64,000 bases of DNA from a virus. Taxonomy: Duplodnaviria > Caudoviricetes. This document shows positions 5,881 through 61,300 of this stretch, piece after piece (position 1 is the stretch's first letter; every line of letters begins with the position of its first letter). A program made the translations under genes and the position numbers. Where the stretch lies: IMG/VR virus record IMGVR_UViG_3300050034_000334. One strand, 5' to 3'. The notes under the pieces are model-generated. The model worked only from the letters and a program-made list of their open reading frames with translations. It was not told the DNA's origin and ran no database searches.

Positions 5881-8800
5881 TCAACCCGCGTAGTAAGTTG
5901 GAATGGAGCCACTTGCAGGTACCAAGTAGATCGCTTCACTCGTGTACTGCAGCCACTGAAAAGTGACCGATTTTGAAATTCCCTTGTCAATCACTGACAC
6001 GGTTATGTTGTTGCTTCCCGTTGAGCCAACTAATGACCCGGTCAGTTGAATCAGAGCCACCGCACTGCCTGAAGATCCAGTTACAGATGTTACAGTTGCC
6101 GAAACTCCTGGTACTGAAGTGGATGCTGAAATAGTGCTAGTTGAAGTAGAAATCACTCCAGTTGCAACCACATAGAACGACATGTTCGGACGAGGACTGA
6201 CTGAACTGATGTTACCAGCATCCACTCCTCCTACGAATCCACTTGGAGATCCTCCAGCAACATAGTCCGGCCCTGACACCAGATACAAGTTAGAAGCTAC
6301 AGTCAGAGACAAGGTCCTTGTGACATAGGCTGTGGTAGAATCTGTCAGCCGGAAAGTGAAGCTGTATGTTCCAACCGCAGTCGAAGTGCCTGTGATAGCT
6401 CCAGTCGAAGCATTCAGATTCATGCCAATTGAAGACAAAGAAGCTGCTGAGGAAGGATCAATCGACCAAGAATAAGCTCCCACACCGCCAGTTCCAGTCA
6501 GAGTGGCGGCGCTGTAAGCCACTCCTGCTGTTGAGTTAGGAAGTGAAGAAGTGGTAATGACCAGAGTCGTATTCTGAACCCTGATGCTGAGAGTGGCTGA
6601 AACCCCGGTGTCTCCAGTGTATCCAGGGACTCCAGACAAAGCCGCATTCAAACTGTCAGTGGCCGTCACAGTAAAGGTCGAAGTGTCAGTTGCAGAAGGA
6701 GTTCCAGATATCACTCCTCCAGAACTCAGAGTCAGCCCAGTTGGGAGACTTCCAGAAGTGAGAGCCCAGCTAACAATCGGAGGATTGTTGGTGGTGGCCG
6801 CCAGGGTAGTGCTGTAAGTGCCTCCAGCAATTCCATCCGGTACAGCAATGGTTGTAACCTTGACCGATGACACAGTCGTGAAAGGAACAGGACCCGTGAA
6901 ATTCTGTCCTAGGCTGTCCTGCACCATGAAGGTGTAGTTGGCCGCCGTGAGAACTAGGTCACAAGTTCCCGAAAGTCCACCGTTGTAAGTGTATCCACTT
7001 CCACGAGTCATCTGTAAATAGTTGGGAAATGCAGGTACTCCCGTGTAGTTCCAGGTATAGGGTGGGGTGCCTCCTAGAGCACCTAGAGTTCCAATGTATC
7101 CCTGTCCACCATAGGGAGCACGAGTGATCGGACCAACACCAGAAATATCAATTGACATGGTGTTAACAGTAACTGAAATCGTAAACACCTCTGAGGTTGT
7201 GACACTAAGGCTATCAACAACCTGAATCGTCACAGATTGAGGTCCTGACAATGTTGCCGGCCCAAGGCCACTGATAGCACCACTCGAATTCATTGTAATT
7301 CCTGCAGGAAATCCTCCAGCAATTACTGACCAAGTGTATCCCAGACCAGATCCTCCACGAGCCGACATCTGAGCATTGTAGTAAGCCGATTGTGTTACGC
7401 TTGGAAGAGGAGAAGTGTTGATAATGATCAGAGAGTCATTCAGAGTGATCGGCAGGGAAGTAGTTGCCTTCACCCCTCTCGAGTCTGTGAGCGTGATCCC
7501 CAGAGTGCTCGAGAAAGCCGTGAGTGCTGTTGTTCCAGAGATAATTCCATTGGGGATCGCAACCGGCAACGATGAAGTCGAAGGTGTGAATCCTGAAGGA
7601 AGACTTCCACTGGTCAGTGTCCAAGTGTACGGTCCGACTCCTCCAACTCCCTGCAGGGAGTCACTGTACGCAATAGACGGGAAAATCTGATCAAGATAAC
7701 CTGTGAGGATCGCCAGAGGAGTGACATACTTGGAAACGAATCTCTTGTAGAGGAACCCAACCGCCCCGGTTGTCGCTATGACCTTGAACCAGACATCAAA
7801 GTATCCGGATTCCGTAGTCGTTCCCGCGACCGTCACTTGTGTTGGAGTCACACTGTTGACCACTGCTGTGATTCCAACAGGGAGCCTTCCTGCAACGATG
7901 GACACCGAAGACAAAGTTCTGTCGGCTTGAATTGACCCAGAATACGGAAGCTGAATGGTGCAATAGGGACTTCTGGGATCACCAAGGTTATCGGTCAAAA
8001 TCACCACACCAGCATAGTTGTTCCAAGTGATCGTGACTGTTCCAGTAGTCACATTGGCAACTATGTAGTTCAGGACTGTCGAATAAACATTGGTGGAAGT
8101 GAGGTATCCATAGATCAACCCAGAACTTGAATCCAATGACAAGCCGCCCGGCAGGAAAGATCCAGTTGCCAGCGAAACTGTGCAACCTGCTCCTTTGCCG
8201 AACGATGGTGAGTTGAAGAAGGGCTTCAGTGGATTCAGGGTTACTAGATTTCCGACTAGATACGGAATAGCTGAAGAACTCAAGTTTCCACCCACAACCG
8301 CCAAAGTTGCGCTGTTGGAGTTCTCCACTGTGTACTCATGGCTGACAGTTGCCACCTGATTTCCTGCAGCGAGAATTGGAACTGAAGTCGTTCCATTGGC
8401 ACTGCCGAAGAAACTGGGAGAAACTATCTGCTGGAAGATCAGGTCTCCGCTCGTCAGAGTGATGCTGATTCCGTTTGCCGAAGTTGCTGAGTACGAACCC
8501 AGGGTCAACCCAGACAAGTTCGAAGAATCGAGGGGAAGAGAAACTGTCGTTGTTGTATCCCCTGATTCCCAAAGATGATCAACAATCGGATTGTACAATC
8601 CAACATTGGCAACCTGAAGACCGACCGTGTAACTGACACTTAGATTTTCGGTGTGGGAAGCAGAGTCAGTGACCAAGAAAGACAGGGTCTGAATTCCGAT
8701 TCTACCAACTGTTGGAGTCAGAAGAAATTCCCAACGACCGTCAATCAAGGCCCCGGAAGATGTGATGCCGGCTCCGTCAGTCATGACTACAGTGTAAGGT

Positions 8801-17699: not shown

Positions 17700-18110
17700 T
17701 CTTTGCCACGTGATCCCGGTTTATCCAGGACCTTCTGTTGCTAGGATCGTAACCGACCCCCGACAGCGATTAAGCTGCCATTGCCAGCGGAGCGAACGAA
17801 CGGACCGGGAAGGCCAGGACGTTGCTACGACGGGCGCTGATACCATTGTCGGTAGCAGTTATTGTTTCTGTGTCCGATTACGGAGGGCCACAGCGTACCG
17901 AGTTGTTATCTCTGGTCAGTTCCAATTGTCGAATCTGTTCGCCCCCATCATAAGCACTCTGGTTCCCAACTTCTGAACAGTCTCTTCTCCAGCGACCGTA
18001 TGAAATTCTAGGCGAAGTGGAGAGTGCTTATGGTGGAGGCGCGGGTCTATGCTAACCCGGTCCAAATGGCACATCACTTTGACTTCAGCTCCGAAGAGCA
18101 TACAACCATA
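17700..18110 (-). ncRNA. ssrA: Circularly permuted (two-piece) tmRNA: acceptor piece ~18110-18031, intervening segment 18030-17947, coding piece 17946-~17700
   Basis: Minus strand: ...GACCGGGT-TAGCATAG-ACCCG-CGCCTCC-A-CCA comes before GGGGGCG-AACAGATTCGAC. The acceptor stem has G3:U70; resume context AATAACT|GCT; tag frame 17856-17770 = ATDNGISARRSNVLAFPVRSFAPLAMAA*. Intervening ends pair (ATAAGCACTCT/AGAGTGCTTAT). Has its own promoter and terminator. Confidence 0.92.
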
Positions 18111-18116
18111 TAGATA

Positions 18117-18145
18117 GTCTACTGGCTATATTTGAATTCCAGGTA
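18117..18145 (-). promoter_or_regulatory. Phage promoter TACCTG-N17-GTAGAC driving the tmRNA
   Basis: One-mismatch match to the consensus, 17-bp spacer, just upstream of the acceptor piece. Confidence 0.65.
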
Positions 18146-33601: not shown

Positions 33602-33904
33602 TCAATCAAGAGATATTCTTCTGAAATGGCGGCGGATGTTGGCATATTCAGGAACCATACCAAGAGTAATGATAATTTCAGCGGCAGCTGCTTCAATGAT
33701 GGCAGCCTCCCCGAATTCAACCATTTGTCTCTCAGCTCCAACAATTCCAATTTCATGAAGAGCATGAATCATTTTGCTAGCTGTGCGAATGCGAGCCATA
33801 ACCCAGGACTCTTGATCACGGTTAGCAATAGGACGTTGACACATCATCTGTTCCCCTGATGAGGGTGGTTGTGGATCAGATGATTGCTTAGATTTCGATT
33901 TCAT
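33602..33904 (-). CDS. Hypothetical protein
   Basis: 100-aa ORF with GAGG SD. Confidence 0.55.
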   Translation of the reverse strand: MKSKSKQSSDPQPPSSGEQMMCQRPIANRDQESWVMARIRTASKMIHALHEIGIVGAERQMVEFGEAAIIEAAAAEIIITLGMVPEYANIRRHFRRISLD

Positions 33905-33942
33905 AGTTGTTACCTCGCAAATCTTGATACAGTCAAGACATT

Positions 33943-34698
33943 ATGACTTCCGGATTCACTTACATGGAAATCATTCATGGTATTTATCAGATACTCAATC
34001 TCAGAAACGGGAAGAGCTATATTGGCCAAAGTTACGGAAAACAGGGGATCTTGGGAAGATGGGAGGGACATCGTAGTGATTTACGTCGTGGAAGTACAAC
34101 CAACACCAAGTTTCTAAATGCATGGAGAAAATATGGAGAAGATAGTTTTGATTTCAGAATTGTCATGGTTATTCCTAACAAGATAGAAATTCTGGATGAA
34201 GCTGAAACATATTTCATCAAACTGTTTGATTCCATTGACAACGGATACAATCTTCGAGAAGGAGGTAATTCAGCTAGACATAGTCCCTCTAGTACAGAGA
34301 AACTCAAGCAGTCCCTTCATACTTACTATTCAAACCAAGGCAATAGGAACAAGGCTTCCATAGCTCAAAGGAAACGGTTTGCTGAACAAGGAGTTTCTAA
34401 GGAGACTCGTATCAAACAATCAAAAAGTCAAACCGGAAGAATTCATCCAGACGAAGTGAGAAAGAAGATACAAGTGGCTTCCTTAACATCTCAGAGAATA
34501 CGGTTTGACACTCAAGGAGTAAGTGAAGAAACTCGTAAGAAGATGTCTATTCTAAGAAGAGGAGTGAAACCTTCAGAAACTGTTCGTCAATCCAGAGCCG
34601 AAGGAGTTAGAAAATTTCATGCCACCCAAGGATTCAGCGAAGAAACCAGGCAGAGAATGTCTGCTGCCCAAAAGAAAAGGTTTGCTAAGACACCTTGA
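33943..34698 (+). CDS. GIY-YIG homing endonuclease with NUMOD3 repeats (antisense)
   Basis: 'GIYQILNLRNGKSYIGQS' and repeated 'SEETR.KMS' units. Confidence 0.9.
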   Translation: MTSGFTYMEIIHGIYQILNLRNGKSYIGQSYGKQGILGRWEGHRSDLRRGSTTNTKFLNAWRKYGEDSFDFRIVMVIPNKIEILDEAETYFIKLFDSIDNGYNLREGGNSARHSPSSTEKLKQSLHTYYSNQGNRNKASIAQRKRFAEQGVSKETRIKQSKSQTGRIHPDEVRKKIQVASLTSQRIRFDTQGVSEETRKKMSILRRGVKPSETVRQSRAEGVRKFHATQGFSEETRQRMSAAQKKRFAKTP

Positions 34699-35284
34699 TA
34701 AGTATAATCTTTCCACTTAGAGTCAGAGAGGAAAGGATGGGCCGGTCATATTCTGGTTGATCTCTCTCTTCTTTATAGATCACCGTCTTCACATTATTGA
34801 TAATAATGGACTTAAAGCAATCCAAACACGGAACGGCTGTATTAAAGAGTACCAACCCCTCCTGTCTAGGAAGTATGGAGTTGACAGGATGTTCCAGACT
34901 CAACTGGGTCAAAGCAGACACTTCAGCATGAACAGTGAGCCGGCAAGTGACCGCTGGGATGCAACCAATCTTCCGGCAGTCACCCTTCAGACCCTCCGGT
35001 TTCACGTTGGCTCCCCAGCTGAGAATTGCCAGGTTCCGGTCAGTCACAACACAACCCATCTTTCGACGTTCACATTCAGCCGTCTCGGCAACTTCATCGA
35101 TGCGATCGAAGATACCTGCGACTGACTGCTCGTCAAATTGTGGGATATTTGGGCTGATCTCATGAGGTTCAGCATCAATCCAGTCAAAGGACCGGGCATA
35201 GTAGGCTATGCGATGTCCTGGATCAAGTTCTAGCCTCACCTTGTACGAGTTGAACGGAACATACAATCTTTGAGTGAATTTCAT
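34685..35284 (-). CDS. dCMP deaminase
   Basis: 'CERRKMGCV', HAE and PCLDC zinc motifs. Confidence 0.85.
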   Translation of the reverse strand: MKFTQRLYVPFNSYKVRLELDPGHRIAYYARSFDWIDAEPHEISPNIPQFDEQSVAGIFDRIDEVAETAECERRKMGCVVTDRNLAILSWGANVKPEGLKGDCRKIGCIPAVTCRLTVHAEVSALTQLSLEHPVNSILPRQEGLVLFNTAVPCLDCFKSIIINNVKTVIYKEERDQPEYDRPILSSLTLSGKIILIKVS

Positions 35285-35565
35285 ACTCCCTCATACTCTC
35301 TTAGGAGAGCTTCTCCTTTGGAGATTTCCTCGGTGATTTCGACCAGCTTGGCAGCCAGCGACTGTTCGAGCTCAGTGGCCTTGGCCTGCATCTCGTCGGC
35401 ACTCATGTCTTCGGGATCGGCCACGCCGTATTCGCGCAACTTGTTCAGAGCTTCGGAGAGTTTCTGCTCTTCGATTCCGGCCTCGCGAATCAGTTGATCC
35501 TTCTTGCCAAGTAGGACCTTCTGTCGGTTTTGGACATCGCGCAGGAGAGTTTGGGTATCGGGCAT
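35281..35565 (-). CDS. Small coiled-coil protein
   Basis: 94-aa heptad-rich ORF directly after the SbcC-like gene. Confidence 0.7.
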   Translation of the reverse strand: MPDTQTLLRDVQNRQKVLLGKKDQLIREAGIEEQKLSEALNKLREYGVADPEDMSADEMQAKATELEQSLAAKLVEITEEISKGEALLREYEGV

Positions 35566-40739: not shown

Positions 40740-41507
40740 CTAGTTCCATATCTTAGAAATTTGAAGGGCACACACGAAAGCACTGGATTTTCGAACACGC
40801 CATTTTGATAAACATCTAATCGATTGGTCCACTCTCCCCAGGTCAAGCGATATCTGGCGTAATCTATTGAATCTCGTTTGACTGATGCCGAACTTACGAG
40901 CAGCCGGGAAATCGTTCTCATGGGCAAAGACGTAGCCAACCAAGTCACGATACAATACATTCAATCGATAGGATGGTTCTACTTCCGCTGGAATCCAGTG
41001 ATTACTTTCCCAGGGTGCTGGCCATAGGGGAGCACTCTTCAGAGGTACATCACCAGTTAGCTGCCACACAGCCTCCCACAGTGCTCCGCGTATGTCTACA
41101 ATTTCCGATTCACGGCATACCTCACGACTAACTGCTTCTAACTTCTCTTTTACTGGCTTTTCTTCACCAAGGATCTCAGATGCCACCCTCACGAGAGCAT
41201 TCATTCCTGCTGATCCACTCTCTAAGGGTTGAATGGACCAGATGCCAGTTTTCTTCTTGACATCAGGACTCAGATCAATGCAGTTCGAAGATGTGACTCG
41301 CAGGAGGAGATTCTCATCCTTCCCCAGTAAGTCATCATCCTTGACAGTTTCTCTATCCTGGCACACCAAATCCAAGAGTTGTTCAGCGAACCGGATCTGC
41401 GCTCTGTCGAACCCAACCAAGATGTTGTTCTTGGACCTCGACTTCTTGCTGATCAGGAGAGGAACCTGAGGGAACTCAGTGGCGGTGTTGTTCTTTACTT
41501 TGACCAT
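40740..41507 (-). CDS. Hypothetical protein
   Basis: 255-aa ORF coupled to the HAD gene. Confidence 0.7.
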   Translation of the reverse strand: MVKVKNNTATEFPQVPLLISKKSRSKNNILVGFDRAQIRFAEQLLDLVCQDRETVKDDDLLGKDENLLLRVTSSNCIDLSPDVKKKTGIWSIQPLESGSAGMNALVRVASEILGEEKPVKEKLEAVSREVCRESEIVDIRGALWEAVWQLTGDVPLKSAPLWPAPWESNHWIPAEVEPSYRLNVLYRDLVGYVFAHENDFPAARKFGISQTRFNRLRQISLDLGRVDQSIRCLSKWRVRKSSAFVCALQISKIWN

Positions 41508-42421
41508 GGATGCAAATACTCAGGAGCATGAGTACGGACCTCTGCGATCCGCTTGTCTTCGATCTCAACTTCTTCAGTCGCGATGCGAGCCTTGATTGCC
41601 AGCACCTTGTTGATAATCCAGCTTCCAACAGTGGCTTCCTCTCGATAGTCAGCCATTCCCAAGATGTCCAGGAACCCATCCTTCCGGATGATCTCCATCT
41701 GCTTGAAACCCTTGGCGTTGGCATACACTCCGACCGCGAACCCGCCATACTTGCGGACCTGTTCGAAGGCATAGACGTCGCTGACTCCATCACCAACATA
41801 GATCATGTTCTTGTATGGAATGAGGTACTGCTCCGGAGGCAAAGGGACACAGGCGTCGTAGAAGAATTCAGCACAGCCCTTGGCGATCTCTTCGAGCACT
41901 CTGACCTTGTCAGAGGGGAGCAAGGTCTTGGCTACAGAAACGATGTGACCCTGTGGAACTCGCTGAGGCTTGCCGTCGAGACCTGTCTCCCAAACGTAGT
42001 CAAGGAACTCCGCTCCTTGGATGTTCTTGTCCTGCACGATAGGCTTGATGGACGGGTGCTCAAGGAGCATGGCCCGGATGCCAGAGGTCACAATGTGGAC
42101 TTCGGCGCCAAGTTCATCGAGTTTCTTGATGATCGTGTCAAGGCCAGGGAAGGTGGGTATCTTGCAGCCAATCTCTGTCAAACGAGGATTGTCGAGATCC
42201 TTCATCGTCCCATTACAGGCACATTCCACAAGATAGTTGAGATACTCATGCTCGACGAAGACGCGGGTGTTCAGGTACTTGGTGTCTTCGTGAGCGCGGC
42301 GGTGTACTTCTTCCCAGAAGGTTCGTTCGGGGATGCCATAATGAGTAAAGATGGGACCCTCCATGTACATTGGAGAACATGTATGGTCCCAATCTAAGAC
42401 GACGGCAATTCTCTGTTTCAT
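41495..42421 (-). CDS. HAD-superfamily hydrolase
   Basis: 'VVLDWDHT', 'IVTSG', 'K', 'YVGDGVSD' motifs I-IV. Confidence 0.88.
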   Translation of the reverse strand: MKQRIAVVLDWDHTCSPMYMEGPIFTHYGIPERTFWEEVHRRAHEDTKYLNTRVFVEHEYLNYLVECACNGTMKDLDNPRLTEIGCKIPTFPGLDTIIKKLDELGAEVHIVTSGIRAMLLEHPSIKPIVQDKNIQGAEFLDYVWETGLDGKPQRVPQGHIVSVAKTLLPSDKVRVLEEIAKGCAEFFYDACVPLPPEQYLIPYKNMIYVGDGVSDVYAFEQVRKYGGFAVGVYANAKGFKQMEIIRKDGFLDILGMADYREEATVGSWIINKVLAIKARIATEEVEIEDKRIAEVRTHAPEYLHPWSK

Positions 42422-43467: not shown

Positions 43468-43486
43468 GATGTATCCCTCCAAGAGT

Positions 43487-43515
43487 ATCTACCACTCTGG
43501 AAGGCGGATCGGTTA
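43487..43515 (-). promoter_or_regulatory. Phage promoter TAACCG-N17-GTAGAT
   Basis: Consensus match, 17-bp spacer. Confidence 0.75.
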
Positions 43516-44238
43516 CACAAGAGCCAGTTTCGGCCTCTCCTTTTGAAATGCACGATGTGAGTCTGACAGAATTTCAATAAACTTCTGAATGTCGACCATG
43601 TGCCAGTACACGCGAGCACCACAGGGAGTCGTCTTGAATTCGAAACCTTCGTTTTCGAACAAGCCAAAGGCACATCCGACTGCAAGGAAAGTGTCCACCA
43701 TCTGACCCATCATCTTTCTGACAATATCCTCGGTCTCTGCCCTGTTGACTTTCCTGCCTTGCTTGTCAGCCGTCACTGTGAACTTGATCTTGGCGAGTAC
43801 CTGATCCAAAGCACCTCGATTGGTGTCCTCCTTCTCAAGATGATTCAACATGACCATGAGGATCTTCCGGAGAAGAGGCTTCAGTCTTTTCTGCTGGTTG
43901 TATACTTGCTCGAGCACTATATCCTGCACAAGCACGGCCACTCCGAATGTTCCACCCCATTTGCCATCCTCACTTACCTGGGAAACGGCCTGATTGAACT
44001 CGGTCAGAGTAGGCATCAATGACCACTTTTCTAGAAGTTCCTTCTCCTGTCTGATGTATTCGAAAAGGCGATTCTCGTTTGGTTTGTTGAGATCAAGGTT
44101 GCTGCTGTCAATGGAGGCAAATTCCTTCTTGGCCTTAGCAGCGATCATCTTCTGAGTGTGCAGAACTCGAGAAAGGTCATCCAAACTCCGGATGACCACC
44201 AGAACTTTCGGCGGCGGAACCAATTCCTTCTTCTTCAT
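43513..44238 (-). CDS. Hypothetical protein
   Basis: 241-aa helical ORF downstream of DnaB. Confidence 0.75.
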   Translation of the reverse strand: MKKKELVPPPKVLVVIRSLDDLSRVLHTQKMIAAKAKKEFASIDSSNLDLNKPNENRLFEYIRQEKELLEKWSLMPTLTEFNQAVSQVSEDGKWGGTFGVAVLVQDIVLEQVYNQQKRLKPLLRKILMVMLNHLEKEDTNRGALDQVLAKIKFTVTADKQGRKVNRAETEDIVRKMMGQMVDTFLAVGCAFGLFENEGFEFKTTPCGARVYWHMVDIQKFIEILSDSHRAFQKERPKLALV

Positions 44239-51084: not shown

Positions 51085-51161
51085 TGGCGACCCTGATGGG
51101 ATTTGAACCCACGTTCCCGGCTTGAGAGGCCAGTCTCCTAGGCCATCTAGAGGACAGGGTC
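51085..51161 (-). tRNA. tRNA-Glu(CTC)
   Basis: Cloverleaf, loop CTCTCAA, CCA. Confidence 0.9.
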
Positions 51162-51174
51162 GTATGTGGAAAGT

Positions 51175-51251
51175 TGGTAGCGTGTATGGGATTTGAACCC
51201 ATGATTCCCTGCGTGAAAGGCAGATGTCCTTGACCACTAGACGAACACGCC
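51175..51251 (-). tRNA. tRNA-Glu(TTC)
   Basis: Cloverleaf, loop CTTTCAC, CCA. Confidence 0.92.
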
Positions 51252-51338
51252 ACAGTCAAATTCTATCCCGGATGATTGAGTCGTCCAGCGGTGTTTTCCT
51301 GGCATGGATAACGCTGAACAGTTCGACCCGGGAATTTC

Positions 51339-51414
51339 TGGTGGAGATAACTGGAGTCGAACCAGTGGCCTCCGCAGTGCGAGTGCGGCGCTCTCCCAAC
51401 TGAGCTATACCCCC
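51339..51414 (-). tRNA. tRNA-Ala(CGC)
   Basis: G3:U70, loop CTCGCAC, CCA. Confidence 0.92.
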
Positions 51415-51434
51415 GAAAAACTGCTACAAAACTT

Positions 51435-51510
51435 TGGTGGAGACAGAGGGGTTCGAACCCCCGACCTCTTGCTTGCAAAGCAGGCGCTCTCCCAACTGAG
51501 CTATGCCCCC
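51435..51510 (-). tRNA. tRNA-Ala(TGC)
   Basis: G3:U70, loop TTTGCAA, CCA. Confidence 0.92.
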
Positions 51511-51616
51511 ACGATGTCAGACAACAGCGCCTGACGGATAAATTCATCAGCATGAGAGGCGTCGAGTCGAGCCAAGCTCTGATCTCGTCCCTCTGGTTCA
51601 TACTGCCTTGAAGTCT

Positions 51617-51692
51617 TGGTGGAGATGACAGGGTTCGAACCTGCGACCTCAACGCTGCCAGCGTCGCGCTCTCCCAACTGAGCTACACCCCC
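51617..51692 (-). tRNA. tRNA-Ala(GGC)
   Basis: G3:U70, loop CTGGCAG, CCA. Confidence 0.92.
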
Positions 51693-51889
51693 ACTATCAC
51701 GAAGATACCACTGTGCCGCAAGCCTCTTGTGTACGCTATTCAAATCGGCATCCAAATGTTCCTTCATGGTTCTCTCCATACTCAATCTTGGAGCGGGTTT
51801 CCAGGTTTCCCTGTTTCATGAACTGGCTCCATCCTGCAGGAACAGATAACCAGACATGCTTCCTTGCGGAAGCCCGCATATCAAAAAGT

Positions 51890-51966
51890 TGGCGGGGCCG
51901 ACGAGACTTGAACTCGCGACTTCTTGCGTGACAGGCAAGCACTCTGACCAGCTGAGCTACGACCCC
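51890..51966 (-). tRNA. tRNA-Asp(GTC)
   Basis: Cloverleaf, loop CTGTCAC, G73, CCA. Confidence 0.93.
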
Positions 51967-52760
51967 GCATTGTGCTTGTCATATATCTGAAACAGATCAG
52001 AGATAGCCAAGCCAGAAAACTTTTCAGCAAATGCAAATACTTCGGATAGATCACTTTCAAAAAGGAAAGTCACATTTGGATGAGCCTTTTGTTTTGCCTC
52101 AGTTTGAGCAGAAGGCCATCCCTTGATTTCTATGAGTTTCCCATCCACTTCAAAGTCAGGAAAGAATTTCTTAAAAGATCCTTGGAATTCGTACTTCAAC
52201 CCCAGCCTATTTCTCTGGATTGATTTCCCATTTTCTAGACACCAAATCAAGAAAGCACATTCCCAAGTTGATTGAACTAGAAATCCTCTGAATCTTCCTT
52301 GTTTTCCTCTTCCTCCCTTTTCTCGAAAACCACCTATCCTATTTGAGTTGTGAATACCCAACATCCGAATCATTCGTACACAATCATCCGAGCAAGTTAT
52401 CCTCCCCTTTAAGGAAGGTTTCCCACAATATTTGCAAGGAACAGGAACTCGATTTCTGTCCCTTTCCTGCCGCTCTTTGCTTCGTATCTCTAGGATTCTC
52501 TTGTGACTTTCAGGACTCCAAGGATTCCTTGAAGCAAAACTACGAGCACAGGATATCTTGCAAAACCGTTCTTTCTCTCCCTCCTTAATCTCTTTTTGGA
52601 AGGTAGTGTTACAATTCTCGCAAACAAACTGGCAAGTGATCCGATTATTACAACAAGGTTTCTTAATTCTAGGTCGCAGAGAACAGTTCCGGATATGCGC
52701 TCCCCAAACTTGACCCCTTTCGTTCCCCCTCATCAATCTGCACCACTGGCACTGACTCAT
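51957..52760 (-). CDS. PD-(D/E)XK (TnsA-like) endonuclease with Zn-finger N-terminus, probable homing endonuclease inside the tRNA cluster
   Basis: 'STWECAF...FFPDFEVDGKLIEIKGW'; AGGAGG SD; AT-rich; its stop overlaps the 5' end of tRNA-Asp. Confidence 0.75.
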   Translation of the reverse strand: MSQCQWCRLMRGNERGQVWGAHIRNCSLRPRIKKPCCNNRITCQFVCENCNTTFQKEIKEGEKERFCKISCARSFASRNPWSPESHKRILEIRSKERQERDRNRVPVPCKYCGKPSLKGRITCSDDCVRMIRMLGIHNSNRIGGFREKGGRGKQGRFRGFLVQSTWECAFLIWCLENGKSIQRNRLGLKYEFQGSFKKFFPDFEVDGKLIEIKGWPSAQTEAKQKAHPNVTFLFESDLSEVFAFAEKFSGLAISDLFQIYDKHNAGS

Positions 52761-52803
52761 GATTCCGACCTCCTATAATCAAATAGGAAGTCGGAATTCA
52801 AAG

Positions 52804-52875
52804 AGCGGGTAGTCAGATTTGAACTGACGCATGATAGAGTGGAAGTCTATTGCCTTACCACTTGGCGATACCCGC
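52804..52875 (-). tRNA. tRNA-Gly(TCC), CCA not encoded
   Basis: GCGGGTA acceptor, loop CTTCCAC, U73, followed by CTT. Confidence 0.88.
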
Positions 52876-52892
52876 AACTTGTACAACAAAAT

Positions 52893-52967
52893 TGGAGCGG
52901 CGGATGGGATTTGAACCCACGACCTCTTGCTTGGCAAGCAAATGTTCTACCACTGAACTACCACCGC
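52893..52967 (-). tRNA. tRNA-Gly(GCC)
   Basis: Cloverleaf, loop TTGCCAA, CCA. Confidence 0.92.
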
Positions 52968-52972
52968 TCATC

Positions 52973-53083
52973 TGACGTGAATGAGTTTCGATTCATGTCT
53001 GGAATGCGCCCCCATAAACCCACCGCGATTGCCCCAATGGGCTTATGGTGGAGCAGATAACCCAAACACATCGACTCACGTCA
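52973..53083 (-). ncRNA. Candidate permuted Ala-acceptor mini-RNA (tmRNA-junction-like rod)
   Basis: TGCTCC-A-CCA followed by a 12-bp hairpin and then GGGGGCG; outer arms TGACGTGA/TCACGTCA pair; 13 nt identical to the tmRNA junction. Confidence 0.45.
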
Positions 53084-53123
53084 TAAATCTCTGCACGAAC
53101 GAAAAGTGAACTTCGTTTTTTAA

Positions 53124-53206
53124 GGCGTCCTAACCCCTAGACGACAGCCCCATGATTTGGCGGGGCCACCAGGATTCGAACCTGGGTATCCTCCTTGACA
53201 GGGAGA
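53124..53206 (-). tRNA. Candidate circularly permuted tRNA-Asp(GTC) (3' part 53206-53158, then 5' part 53151-53124)
   Basis: Anticodon arm, T-arm, TGGCCCC-G-CCA, a 6-nt linker, then GGGGCTG plus a complete D-arm; the two parts pair into one cloverleaf. May be two decayed tandem copies. Confidence 0.5.
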
Positions 53207-53236
53207 ACAAAATTCTGACGGCTCGTGCAAAACCTT

Positions 53237-53314
53237 TGGTGCGCCGTCAGGGATTCGAACCCCGGACCTACTGCTTGTAAGGCAGCCGCTCTAACCGGAC
53301 TGAGCTAACAGCGC
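53237..53314 (-). tRNA. tRNA-Val(TAC)
   Basis: Cloverleaf, loop CTTACAA, CCA. Confidence 0.93.
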
Positions 53315-53327
53315 ACATCTTAGTACC

Positions 53328-53358
53328 AAAACGAAAAGGACAGCCGCTTGGGCTGTCC
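53328..53358 (-). terminator. Rho-independent terminator
   Basis: GGACAGC-CCAAGCG-GCTGTCC followed by TTTTCGTTTT. Confidence 0.8.
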
Positions 53359-53379
53359 TTGGTTGAATCTCGCTGAAGT

Positions 53380-53484
53380 TTAGCTGATTCGCACCAAGGA
53401 CAGATGCCCGGTATCCACGCCCTCCGCTGCTTCAGCGGCGACGACCGTTGCAACTGCTCCGACGAATTCAACCATGCTCTTCAT
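53380..53484 (-). CDS. Small peptide MKSMVEFVGAVATVVAAEAAEGVDTGHLSLVRIS (34 aa)
   Basis: GGAG SD and a downstream terminator. Confidence 0.45.
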   Translation of the reverse strand: MKSMVEFVGAVATVVAAEAAEGVDTGHLSLVRIS

Positions 53485-58315: not shown

Positions 58316-61300
58316 CTAACTGCATCCAGTTGTTTGTCCACAATCGTTGCACTTTTCACAGGTTCCGGATCTCACCATGTGCATAGATCCGCAAGCACCA
58401 CAGGAGTTCCCAGTGAAACCACTGCGCTTGGCTTCACTGGCCTCTGATACGGTTGGCAAACGTGTTTCTTTGTCTACTAACAGCCCCAATGATTTCACCT
58501 TTTCCTTGTCCTCAGGTTTGATGTGGGCAAGGTCATAGCGATCCAGATAGGTGATTGCCAACTCACGGAAGACATAATCCATCAGAGAAGTGGCATTCTT
58601 GACATAGCTGGAACCCTGAACAAATCCAGAAGGTTCAAACTTGGTGAAAGTGAACGCATCCACAAACTCCTCGAGCGGAACGCCGTACTGCAATCCCAGA
58701 CTGATGGCGATAGCAAAGCAGTTGAGGAGAGAACGCAAGGTTGCTCCCTCGCGACTGACATCGATGAAGACCTCTCCCAACCTGCCATCCTCGTACTCCC
58801 CGGTGTGCAGATAGAGGGAATGATCGCCAATTTTGGCCTTCTGTACAAATCCATGGCGACGGTATGGTAGACGCTTGCGAAATCCTCGAGCTAATGCTTC
58901 TGCCAAGACAGCAGCTTTTGTGTCGTTGTTGGCACCGCTGGTGAGCACTTCAACTTCCTTCTCATCCAGGCCCTCCAGCAGCTGCATGTTTGTGGCTAGA
59001 GCCTGTGACATCTTGGATCCGTCACGATACAGAGCCACTGCTTTGATGCCAAGTTCCCACGCCAACAGATGAATGTCATTGAAGTCTTGTTGAGTAGAGT
59101 TGGCCGGGAGATTTACAGTCTTGCTGATAGCTCCTGAAATGAAGGGTTGAACAGCTGCCATCATCTCCACATGAGCACGTGGAGAGATGAAACGAGTACC
59201 ATTTTCACCACACTTGTTGGCACAATCGAACACGGCCAAGTGAGCATTCTTCAAGGCCGGTGCCCCTTCGATGGTCTTCTCGTTCTCGATGTGCTTGAGG
59301 ATCTCAACCACTTGTTCGTCCGTGTACCCCAAGTTCTTCAAGGCCGGAGGGACAGACTGATTGACTATCTTGAAGTATCCTCCACCGGCCAACTTCTTGA
59401 ACTTCACCAGAGCATAGTCAGGTTCCGCTCCCGTCGTGTCGCAATCCATCACCAACCCGATGGTCCCTGTCGGAGCCAAGCAGGTGCTCTGGGCATTCCT
59501 CAACCCGAATTCCTCAACCTGAGACACTACCTTGTCCCAGATGTCACGAGCCTGAGTGACCAGCTTTCTTGGTCCACGATAGAGAAGTTTCAGACCCACA
59601 GGAGTAGTTGAAAGCCCATCGTATCCAAGCTCTCCATTGTAAGCAGCCGAACGATGGTTCCGCATCACTTTCAAGACAACCTCTCGATTTTCATCATAGC
59701 CAGGAAACACTCCCAACTTCTGAGCCAAATCTGAGGATGTCAGGTACGATTCACCTGTCATGATGGCAGTGATGGCCGCAGCCCAGTTTCGGCCGGTCTC
59801 ACTGTCATAAGGAAAGCCCAGCTGCATGAGCATGGCGCCAAGGTTCGCGTATCCCAAGCCCAGGGTGCGGAACTTGTATGACAACTCAGCAATCGAGGGT
59901 CCTGGGAACTGAGCCATCGTTACAGAAATCTCTAGAGCGATGGTTGTCAAACGGCAGCAATGGCGGAAGGCCTCGACGTTGAACTCTCCGTCTTCCAGGA
60001 ACTTCACGAGATTTGAGGAAGCCAGATTGCAGGCAGTGTCATCCAGGAACATGTACTCGCTGTTGTGTATAAACACACCAGAAAAGTTGTCGTGACCATT
60101 CACACAAGACGGTTTTGACGAAGTGAAAACAGCAAAGTTGTGGGTATTGTCTACCGTACCATCGTAGACGTCTTCATTACCACAGAACTCTACCGAAACA
60201 ACCGTATGGTTGAAGTTGACCACGGCCTCTTGTAGTAACTCATCAGTGGGGTACCAACGAACAATAGTGTCTTTTGTGGGAAATTTCTTCACTCCAAGTT
60301 GCTTTGCTACATCTCGTAGTTCTTCCCAATTTTCTAGAGAAAAAGAAACTCCATTATCTTGAAAAGTTCGAGCAACCTCAGCAATCATACCCTCGATTAA
60401 ACGCTTCGAGTGACGTTCTCCAAACATTTGTTTACCAAGTGGAGATCTCTGACATTCAGTACCACAGCAAATCTGATCCTCCAAAATGGTGATGAAATTA
60501 CCACGGCATATAGGGCAGCAACGCTCAAATCGTTCAGCAGTTACTGTACGACCAATATGCCTACCCTCTGATCGCATTTTTGTTTGTGTTTCTCTTATAG
60601 ATCTACTCAACTGTTCGTGTTGTTGGTGGTCTTCCCATCTAGAAACTGCAGAATTACTCATATTCTGTTTGGAAACTTCACTGTGCTGTTTTCCAAACAT
60701 AGGGTTAAGTTCACCAGTGATTGATTTTGAAATGTTGGCACGCCATTCATCATTCATTAAACGACGGGCTGGATTATTGTCACCAAGCATTGATTCCCGA
60801 TGCAAAGCTGCATGATCCTTCGCAGACAATAGCTTGAAATTTTGTGGGTTATCATTCAGAGCATCAAAATCAGAGTGATGAATGTGATAACCTTCCGGTG
60901 CTTGACCAAAAAAGAAATCGTTAATTAAACGATACTGCTGAGCCCAACGAGTACCTCCCCACACATTTCTACGACGCGTGGCTCCTTTTCCATTTTGGAT
61001 TATGGAAGAGTGAAAAGGCATAAGAGAATCACCAGGTTGTAGGTCTATAACCTTTCGGTATGAACCATCCCGCAGCATCATAAGTTCGTCGTCAGTAACA
61101 CGTAGGCTACTTCCATCGTCAAACGTAACGCAGAAAATGGGAGCATTAGTTCTTTTAACTCCAATATTCCACATCAATTCTATTGAAGTCTTTTGCGTCC
61201 TGTGATTCCTGGTAAACACAGGCACTTCTGTTCCTACCAAATCTCTAATAGGAACCGCTGTACGACCATCTGCTACAGCCACCAAAGTCTCCCCAGTAAC

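Follow-up and report, generated by a model that had tools for sequence, protein, structure and literature searches.

Within the tRNA array of a jumbo phage recovered from peat and permafrost metagenomes, the minus strand of the window (the whole 64,000-nucleotide stretch that was analysed) carries at positions 53206-53126 a sequence that reads as a tRNA-Asp with its 3' half placed first, and this raises the question of whether the locus is a circularly permuted tRNA gene or an RNA of another class with a tRNA-like fold. On the minus strand, positions 53206-53158 correspond to tRNA positions 27-76, including the anticodon GUC, G73 and CCA, and positions 53151-53126 correspond to tRNA positions 1-26, with a linker of 6 nt separating position 76 from position 1. 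The order begins with an anticodon-arm mimic (53190..53206), in which RNAfold pairs UCUCC with GGAGG in a 5-bp stem that carries the 7-nt loop CUGUCAA with U33, GUC and A37, the GUC triplet being read from the sequence at 53199-53197. It continues with a variable region of four nucleotides, AUAC (53189-53186), whose last base is C48, and a T arm, CCAGG-UUCGAAU-CCUGG (53185-53169). The 3' strand of the acceptor, UGGCCCC (53168-53162), is followed by G73 (53161), an encoded CCA (53160-53158), the linker AAUCAU (53157-53152) and the 5' strand of the acceptor, GGGGCUG (53151-53145), so that the region 53145..53168 forms a closed acceptor stem of seven pairs, three of them G.U, sealed by the 10-nt loop GCCAAAUCAU. 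U8 and C9 (UC, 53144-53143), the D arm GUCU-AGGGGUUA-GGAC (53142-53127) and G26 (53126) complete the core, and a post-D segment consisting of CCUU and a run of A (53116..53125), part of an A-rich linker kept in the family described below, follows on the same strand.

The universal tertiary positions of tRNA are all present in this core and no conserved tRNA position has decayed. G15 and C48 are both there and able to pair, and U13-G22 and A46 are what we take to be the usual state in D arms of the tRNA-Glu/Asp type. ARAGORN calls a tRNA-Asp(gtc) on the re-ordered 75-mer and makes no tRNA call on the native order, for which the Rfam tRNA model returns only 23.5 bits, below threshold; on many re-ordered joins of relatives, ARAGORN proved too permissive to discriminate. 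The original prediction was thus right about the layout: the 3' half comes first, the two halves cover positions 1-76 in full and their ends pair into a complete 7-bp acceptor stem. It had also reported an overlap of 2-3 nt at the junction of the D and anticodon arms, and this overlap is real, since both the local 5' strand and the CCUU lying 3' of G26 can pair with the 3' strand of the anticodon stem. The CCUU competes with the local strand for GAGG (positions 40-43), to which it can pair; in the window the local strand makes five of five pairs and the post-D CCUU four of five.

The core is embedded in a longer structure. Upon folding 53232-53088 with RNAfold, the minimum free energy structure contains a terminal stem, a second helix and the anticodon-like, T, acceptor and D arms, the tRNA-like part sitting at the tip of a stem that the flanks form in two steps; the long end-to-end stem is present in the minimum free energy structure and in the centroid. 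On the basis of this fold, the match to a covariance model (R1, see below) and the ends of contigs from RNA runs, the whole unit spans ~140 nt on the minus strand (53090..53229). The 5' strand of the terminal helix (53219..53229) consists of UGCACGAGC, a bulged C at 53220 and a G, and its 3' strand (53090..53107), with a CACUU motif before it (ACUUUUCGUUCGUGCAGA), reaches the 3' end of the RNA. This outer helix, in which UUUUGCACGAGC pairs with GUUCGUGCAGAG around the bulged C, is separated by an internal loop from the second helix, in which GAAUUUUGUU (53206..53215) pairs with AACGAAGUUC (53108..53117), both strands lying on the minus strand. The pairing of the flanks that had been proposed from the sequence (AAUUUUGUU/AACGAAGUU) is confirmed: it belongs to this second helix and so to the longer stem in two steps at the end of the RNA.

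The 5' strand of the terminal helix holds a motif resembling a Ro60 site, GAGCCG/GCCGUCAG, which fits the published GNCGAAN0-1G imperfectly in that GNCG is followed by UC where AA is expected; the bulged C is kept in the helix GAGC[C]G / CGUUC of the window RNA. Family members that adjoin genes for TROVE proteins deviate from GNCGAAN0-1G as well (GUCGCUGG in L284 and GCUGAUUG in L161), and the 5' strand of the window aligns with GGGCCGAUAG and GAGCCGAAUG of its relatives. The CACUU motif is reminiscent of the 3' strand of vertebrate Y RNAs, CACUUGAC.

Two pattern scans of IMG/VR for a T loop followed by a D arm gave 156 distinct matches, among which 25 distinct elements possess a perfect 7-bp closed acceptor where ~0.16 would be expected by chance; the element is more than chance. 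The closed acceptors of these 25 elements are either sealed by a tetraloop or carry, as in the window, NCCA and a short linker usually ending in U, the share of NCCA being biased upward as the first scan required CCA. Fifteen of these elements can be aligned with the window over their full length, inclusive of features that do not derive from tRNA, namely a GAGCCG or GGGCCG close to the 5' end, a CACUU(G) ahead of the 3' strand of the terminal helix and an A-rich linker 3' of the D arm. The covariance model R1 was derived from 14 phage elements of IMG/VR, the window being excluded. Its match to the window spans 53229-53090 and model positions 1-138, scoring 98.9 bits at a rough E-value of ~3e-26; no tandem tRNA in that search exceeds 32 bits. 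Over the 14 sequences without the window, the R1 structure, taken as the terminal helix, the composite anticodon stem and the T, acceptor and D arms, has 86.5% of its cells paired against ~40% with slid partners, and a covariation score of 0.544 against ~0.11. The terminal helix, the T stem and the 7-bp acceptor stem (99% of cells paired) covary in the family. An exact-junction pattern had no match in IMG/VR, among 50,697 phage records blastn of the region matched only the neighbouring tRNAs, and R1 has no match in Thermus phage phiLo, whose Y RNAs have been shown experimentally, or in Caulobacter phage CcrSC.

The family also clarifies the overlap at the anticodon stem. In its members, positions 41-43 have as partners the three bases that follow G26 (C27, Y28, N29), and the lower pairs come from the local upstream strand, so that the discontinuity falls inside the 5' strand of the anticodon stem; the pairs 27-43, 28-42 and 29-41 (helix 3) covary, with C-G, U-A, G-C and U.G all seen. 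The anticodon-like loop of seven nucleotides has U at its position 2 in 13 of the 14 relatives and a purine at its position 6 in all 14, and its triplet varies (GUC, AUC, UCC, ACC, GCU, UCG and GCG). Relatives with the same CUGUCAA or AUGCUAA loops have acceptors sealed by UUCG or GUGU, and the arm is thus a conserved mimicry and not proof of decoding.

Similar modules occur in the Tunturiibacter phage Tunturi_5 (PP885688.1; L110 404-466 and 4155-4264), where an R1-core module with its acceptor sealed by a 3-nt loop scores 47.2 bits. Another tRNA-like element of permuted order in this phage has an acceptor stem interrupted by a long insert; it directly follows a tRNA-Val(tac) and occupies the position equivalent to that of the window's element.

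Four records have an R1-family RNA and a TROVE gene on one and the same strand, no more than ~1.5 kb apart: G007 (RNA 35223-35357, TROVE match 33714-34595), G012 (RNA 43469-43608, TROVE match 41360-42256), G009 (RNA 97877-98013, TROVE match 96199-96387) and G008, in which two tandem RNAs (59010-59305) stand just upstream of the ORF (TROVE match 60341-60502). TROVE (PF05731) occurs in 9 of the 12 module-bearing IMG/VR records outside the window's lineage (G002 not counted), a co-occurrence that is weak on its own because two of five control huge phages also have TROVE; the adjacency is the stronger evidence. As adjacency to Ro60 is the criterion that defines YrlA, the R1 family is a phage Y RNA family. 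This linkage is established for members of the family and does not extend to the copy in the window: tblastn with three phage TROVE proteins found no Ro60 gene in the 64-kb window, the 4 kb around the element included, and PF05731 is absent from two complete related phages, Tunturi_5 and G002, and from three fragmentary close relatives. The window lineage is therefore one in which no Ro60 gene was found in the sequences searched; a tRNA-Val pattern scan of genome contigs, made to reach the hosts, which are likely Acidobacteria, and test them for Ro60, returned only Ignavibacteria and Bacteroidota. What had been predicted as a self-contained tRNA gene of 83 nt thus becomes an RNA of ~140 nt with a terminal stem of the Y RNA type, belonging to a family found beside Ro60 genes.

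The region 53095-53235 is contained in 18 metatranscriptome runs, and contigs cross the element in genomic order in four of them (X15, 53042-53270; X16, 52850-53270; X17, 53090-53450; X25, 53090-53357). Those of X17 and X25 end at 53090, exactly where the R1 match ends, and in X25 this base is directly joined to Illumina adapter sequence, the mark of a genuine fragment end. Being assembled contigs, these data speak for presence and not for transcription, level, strand or RNase P cleavage. In X15 a further contig end, at 53442, has an Illumina adapter abutting it and suggests a defined RNA end inside a structured non-coding region upstream of tRNA-Val. A terminator-like hairpin at ~53330-53360 is read through in several RNA-run contigs; a metagenome scan that used a terminator hairpin, which proved too common, gave window-related loci in 5 of 103 cases.

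We conclude, with a probability of about 0.75, that the locus is the gene of a ~140-nt YrlA-like Y RNA in the tRNA array of a peat jumbo phage, and not a decoding tRNA-Asp. The paired ends form the long stem with a bulged C that is the usual Ro60-binding module, and the far end folds as a tRNA L-shape; a loop seals the acceptor stem of this L-shape, and for this reason the 3' half of the tRNA comes first in the DNA. The RNA would be transcribed together with the tRNA array and cut out of the array transcript, with its 3' end at 53090. RNase P probably opens the acceptor loop at a predicted site between U53152 and G53151, given the 7-bp stem, the U at -1, the G73-CCA in place and the precedent of Mycobacterium smegmatis YrlA (PMC4201824). 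After this cut, exonucleases would remove AAUCAU as far as the CCA, and both pieces would remain base-paired, as has been shown for M. smegmatis YrlA. During infection the RNA would bind a Ro60 ring, of host or phage origin, and either link this ring to an exoribonuclease (e.g. PNPase) or gate it; such coupling of Ro60 and exonuclease has precedents in D. radiodurans and Salmonella (10.1101/312249) and in phage phiLo (PMC12135203). Most likely, it serves as other Y RNAs do.

The close relatives divide over the locus. L092, which is 98.5% identical over 903 nt, has the same RNA with C53165U as the only internal change (G4-C69 to G4.U69), and this allele also occurs in RNA-run contigs. L002 and three metagenome contigs, with a helicase 95% identical, have a different cassette between 51973 and 53328, in which there is another allele of tRNA-Val, an ORF of ~230 aa takes the place of the RNA and an adjacent mini-element is kept. 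The tRNA array as such is a mosaic, window 51973-53328 corresponding to L002 5862-7280 (also L007, L025 and L026). The L002 replacement brings in another allele of tRNA-Val(tac), the ~230-aa ORF (~5977-6653), which may encode a homing endonuclease, tRNA-Gly alleles that differ from those of the window, one more ORF and a tRNA-Val(gac), and L092 represents a third combination.

The mini-element (52973-53083, minus strand; L002 6645-6750) is a second structured RNA directly downstream of the Y RNA. It has a terminal helix (GACGUGAGU.../...CAUUCACGUC), a 5' motif, GUGAGUCGAUG, close to GNCGAAN0-1G, a second helix, an acceptor-like pair GCUCC-A-CCA / GGGGGCG and a long hairpin as cap, and L002-type relatives keep it, their second helix showing compensatory changes. 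It is a possible YrlB-like companion to the Y RNA. The idea that this phage holds several permuted stable RNAs is upheld by this conserved mini-element together with a permuted tmRNA at 17723-18139.

Other features of the array and its relatives deserve mention. The nine tRNAs of the array (51085-53314) all have anticodons with C36 (ctc, ttc, cgc, tgc, ggc, gtc, tcc, gcc and tac), a pattern into which the anticodon-like GUC of the Y RNA fits. In L004 (10700-10890) and L005 (313-kb related phage, G002) there is a tRNA-like gene with an apparent insert of ~110 nt, composed of ACCCGGU, a D arm UCGUCUAAAUGGUUAGGAC, a T arm that comes far later, ACCGGGU and CCA, on which ARAGORN makes no call; it may be an intron-bearing or otherwise interrupted tRNA. 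A tRNA with the anticodon CUA (labelled Pyl by ARAGORN) occurs in L003 (7541-7614), L004 (7538-7611) and L005 (6465-6538), downstream of a homologue of the 331-aa gene, and is likely an amber suppressor.

The same RNA and fold could instead act independently of Ro60 as a tRNA decoy, i.e. as an opened, CCA-ended, two-piece look-alike of tRNA-Asp that soaks up or distracts a tRNA-binding factor, for which a host anticodon nuclease or other tRNA-targeting defence, AspRS and a modification enzyme are candidates. We consider this unlikely, even if the anticodon-like arm is complete, with U33 kept in 13/14 and purine 37 in 14/14 relatives, G73-CCA is encoded with a U at -1, and the complete related phages Tunturi_5 and G002 have no TROVE gene. 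Of the identity elements that we take E. coli AspRS to use, G73, G34-U35-C36, G10 and G2-C71 are present and only C38 is missing, which also counts for a decoy. Against it, close structural homologues directly adjoin Ro60 genes, the bulged terminal stem, which a simple decoy would not need, is conserved and covarying, and no single target is evident among relatives whose anticodon-like triplets differ. A related proposal, that the opened two-piece G73-CCA RNA is charged by aspartyl-tRNA synthetase and is thereby a natural split tRNA mimic in a bacterial virus, we judge distinctly unlikely. If it were true, the RNA could act on ribosomes, elongation factors or tRNA-sensing defences, with or without Ro60, and the whole huge-phage family with built-in NCCA would be one of chargeable Y RNAs.

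That the locus is a true permuted tRNA-Asp, in which the flank helix is cut, positions 26 and 27 are ligated by an enzyme of the RtcB or Rnl type or the pieces remain unjoined, and the product decodes GAY, is very unlikely. The complete set of universal tertiary positions and the good tRNA-Asp that ARAGORN finds in the re-ordered sequence are in keeping with it, but an intact tRNA-Asp(GTC), already pointed out in the original prediction, lies 1.2 kb away at 51890-51966, and the element would not supply an isoacceptor that is otherwise missing. No go-back joint 53126-53206 was seen in contigs of four RNA runs, contigs being able to drop rare or very short species. The flanks contain no bulge-helix-bulge in the minimum free energy structure, where two long helices and an asymmetric internal loop are formed without a 3-4-3 motif and a single strand of 8-9 nt is present on one side only of the flank helices; to our knowledge, a splicing endonuclease of the bulge-helix-bulge type is not expected in bacteria. 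Homologues with the same arm have acceptors sealed by UUCG or GUGU, and the relative with a 95% identical helicase has an ORF instead of the element. The claim of a decoding tRNA-Asp is thus given up in view of the intact gene, the lack of a re-joined form in the contigs and the tetraloop-sealed homologues.

A dead remnant, left by two tandem tRNA copies that lost opposite ends (the alternative offered with the original prediction) or by a fragment of unit length that a homing endonuclease set free and that the array took up, is extremely improbable, for although the array is a mosaic shaped by endonuclease genes, with 51973-53328 replaced wholesale in L002-type relatives, and the element itself is seen only in near-identical strains (window and L092), it has full-length homology to an independent phage RNA family, conserved non-tRNA flanks and family-wide covariation included, no conserved tRNA position has decayed, its only internal variant (C53165U) keeps the base pair and a defined RNA end falls at the predicted terminus, 53090. 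Readings as a group I intron or an attP site were rejected as the flanks are too short and differently structured, and as conservation of the family extends to phages unrelated to one another.

Y RNAs that mimic tRNA are already known, and their tRNA-like end is without a settled function. The R1 family, which is common in the tRNA arrays of huge phages and is not detected by the Rfam YrlA model, takes this mimicry further than the studied examples, with a 7-bp acceptor stem and a conserved anticodon-like loop, and a subset of it that includes the window element has an encoded NCCA and a leader-like linker usually ending in U. Two questions become testable, viz., whether some Y RNAs are opened and charged like tRNAs, and whether phages use Y RNAs with the Ro60 of the host or without any. 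For annotation, calls of a "permuted tRNA" in phages should first be checked against the Y RNA class.

Among the known systems with which the window RNA can be compared are the permuted tRNA genes reported from Cyanidioschyzon merolae, other algae and Thermofilum pendens, whose precursors form a bulge-helix-bulge that is cut by splicing endonuclease, are ligated to a circle and are then opened into a decoding tRNA (Soma 2007; Maruyama 2010; Chan 2011). Genes of this type share with the window the 3' half placed first, a closed-loop acceptor holding the future ends and pairing of the flanks. Unlike them, the window has no bulge-helix-bulge, its RNA-run contigs show no joined product and a normal isoacceptor gene is present.

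A nearer comparison is the permuted two-piece tmRNA of the window itself (17723-18139; RF04321, RF01849), which has the same permuted order of a 3' part ending in CCA, a short spacer and the 5' acceptor strand. Maturation of two-piece tmRNA opens the loop, and the pieces stay paired. In contrast to tmRNA, with its G3.U70 alanine identity, tag frame and pseudoknots and its lack of D and anticodon arms, the window RNA carries no message, has a complete D arm and pairs G3 with C70; a test of the element for tmRNA found G3-C70 and a discriminator G, and RF04321 scored only 9.8 bits.

Yrl1 and Yrl2 of Thermus phage phiLo, which are bound by the phage Ro60 and the host PNPase (PMC12135203), are like the window RNA phage-encoded Y RNAs with a 5'-3' stem. 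As described, they are stem-bulge-stem Y RNAs, and with no R1 match their likeness to the window RNA is one of class and not of detectable homology.

The closest parallel is YrlA. The YrlA RNAs are Y RNAs of bacteria and phages whose protein partner is Rsr, the orthologue of Ro60, and RNAs of the YrlA type are reported from 254 bacterial species and 22 phages (PMC4201824; 10.1101/312249). Their paired 5' and 3' ends form a long stem that carries the GNCGAAN0-1G motif (PMC4201824), and their tRNA-like domains, with a loop-closed acceptor, "likely resemble circularly permuted tRNAs" (PMC4201824; 10.1101/312249). In M. smegmatis, YrlA has a 7-bp acceptor, and RNase P cleaves it both in vitro and in vivo, after which a CCA end is gained (PMC4201824). 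The statement made with the original prediction that nothing of the kind is known in bacteria or phages is therefore to be corrected, YrlA having been described already (PMC4201824; 10.1101/312249).

The window RNA agrees with YrlA in its paired ends in a long stem, which in YrlA carries the Ro60 site and in the window holds a motif that fits this site imperfectly, in a far end made of T arm, loop-closed acceptor and D arm in permuted-tRNA topology, and in the top pairs of the anticodon stem, formed by the post-D and pre-variable strands, with a variable region of 4 nt. The Rfam consensus of YrlA (RF02553) has the same order of elements, namely terminal helix, second helix, top pairs of the anticodon stem, 4-nt variable region, T arm, closed acceptor and D arm. 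With M. smegmatis YrlA the window RNA shares the 7-bp acceptor, a feature tied to RNase P cleavage and the CCA end, and the window RNA and the small RNA at 52973-53083 together resemble the tandem yrlB-yrlA arrangement. RF02553 (gathering score 69 bits) nevertheless gives no match on 53060-53250 (191 nt) even at E up to 10; its sub-threshold matches are unspecific, being obtained in 11 of 14 control genomes and from tandem tRNAs too. The differences from YrlA lie in the D arm, which is GUCU...GGAC (Glu/Asp type) in the window and GCUC...GAGC in YrlA (RF02553), in the complete anticodon-like stem-loop as compared with Salmonella Typhimurium YrlA, which is without the loop, and in the whole G73-CCA that the window RNA encodes within its acceptor loop. 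Ro60 binding explains neither the complete anticodon-like arm nor the encoded CCA. Thus, what is new here in relation to YrlA is a phage Y RNA missed by the Rfam YrlA model that has a full anticodon-like arm and a built-in CCA.
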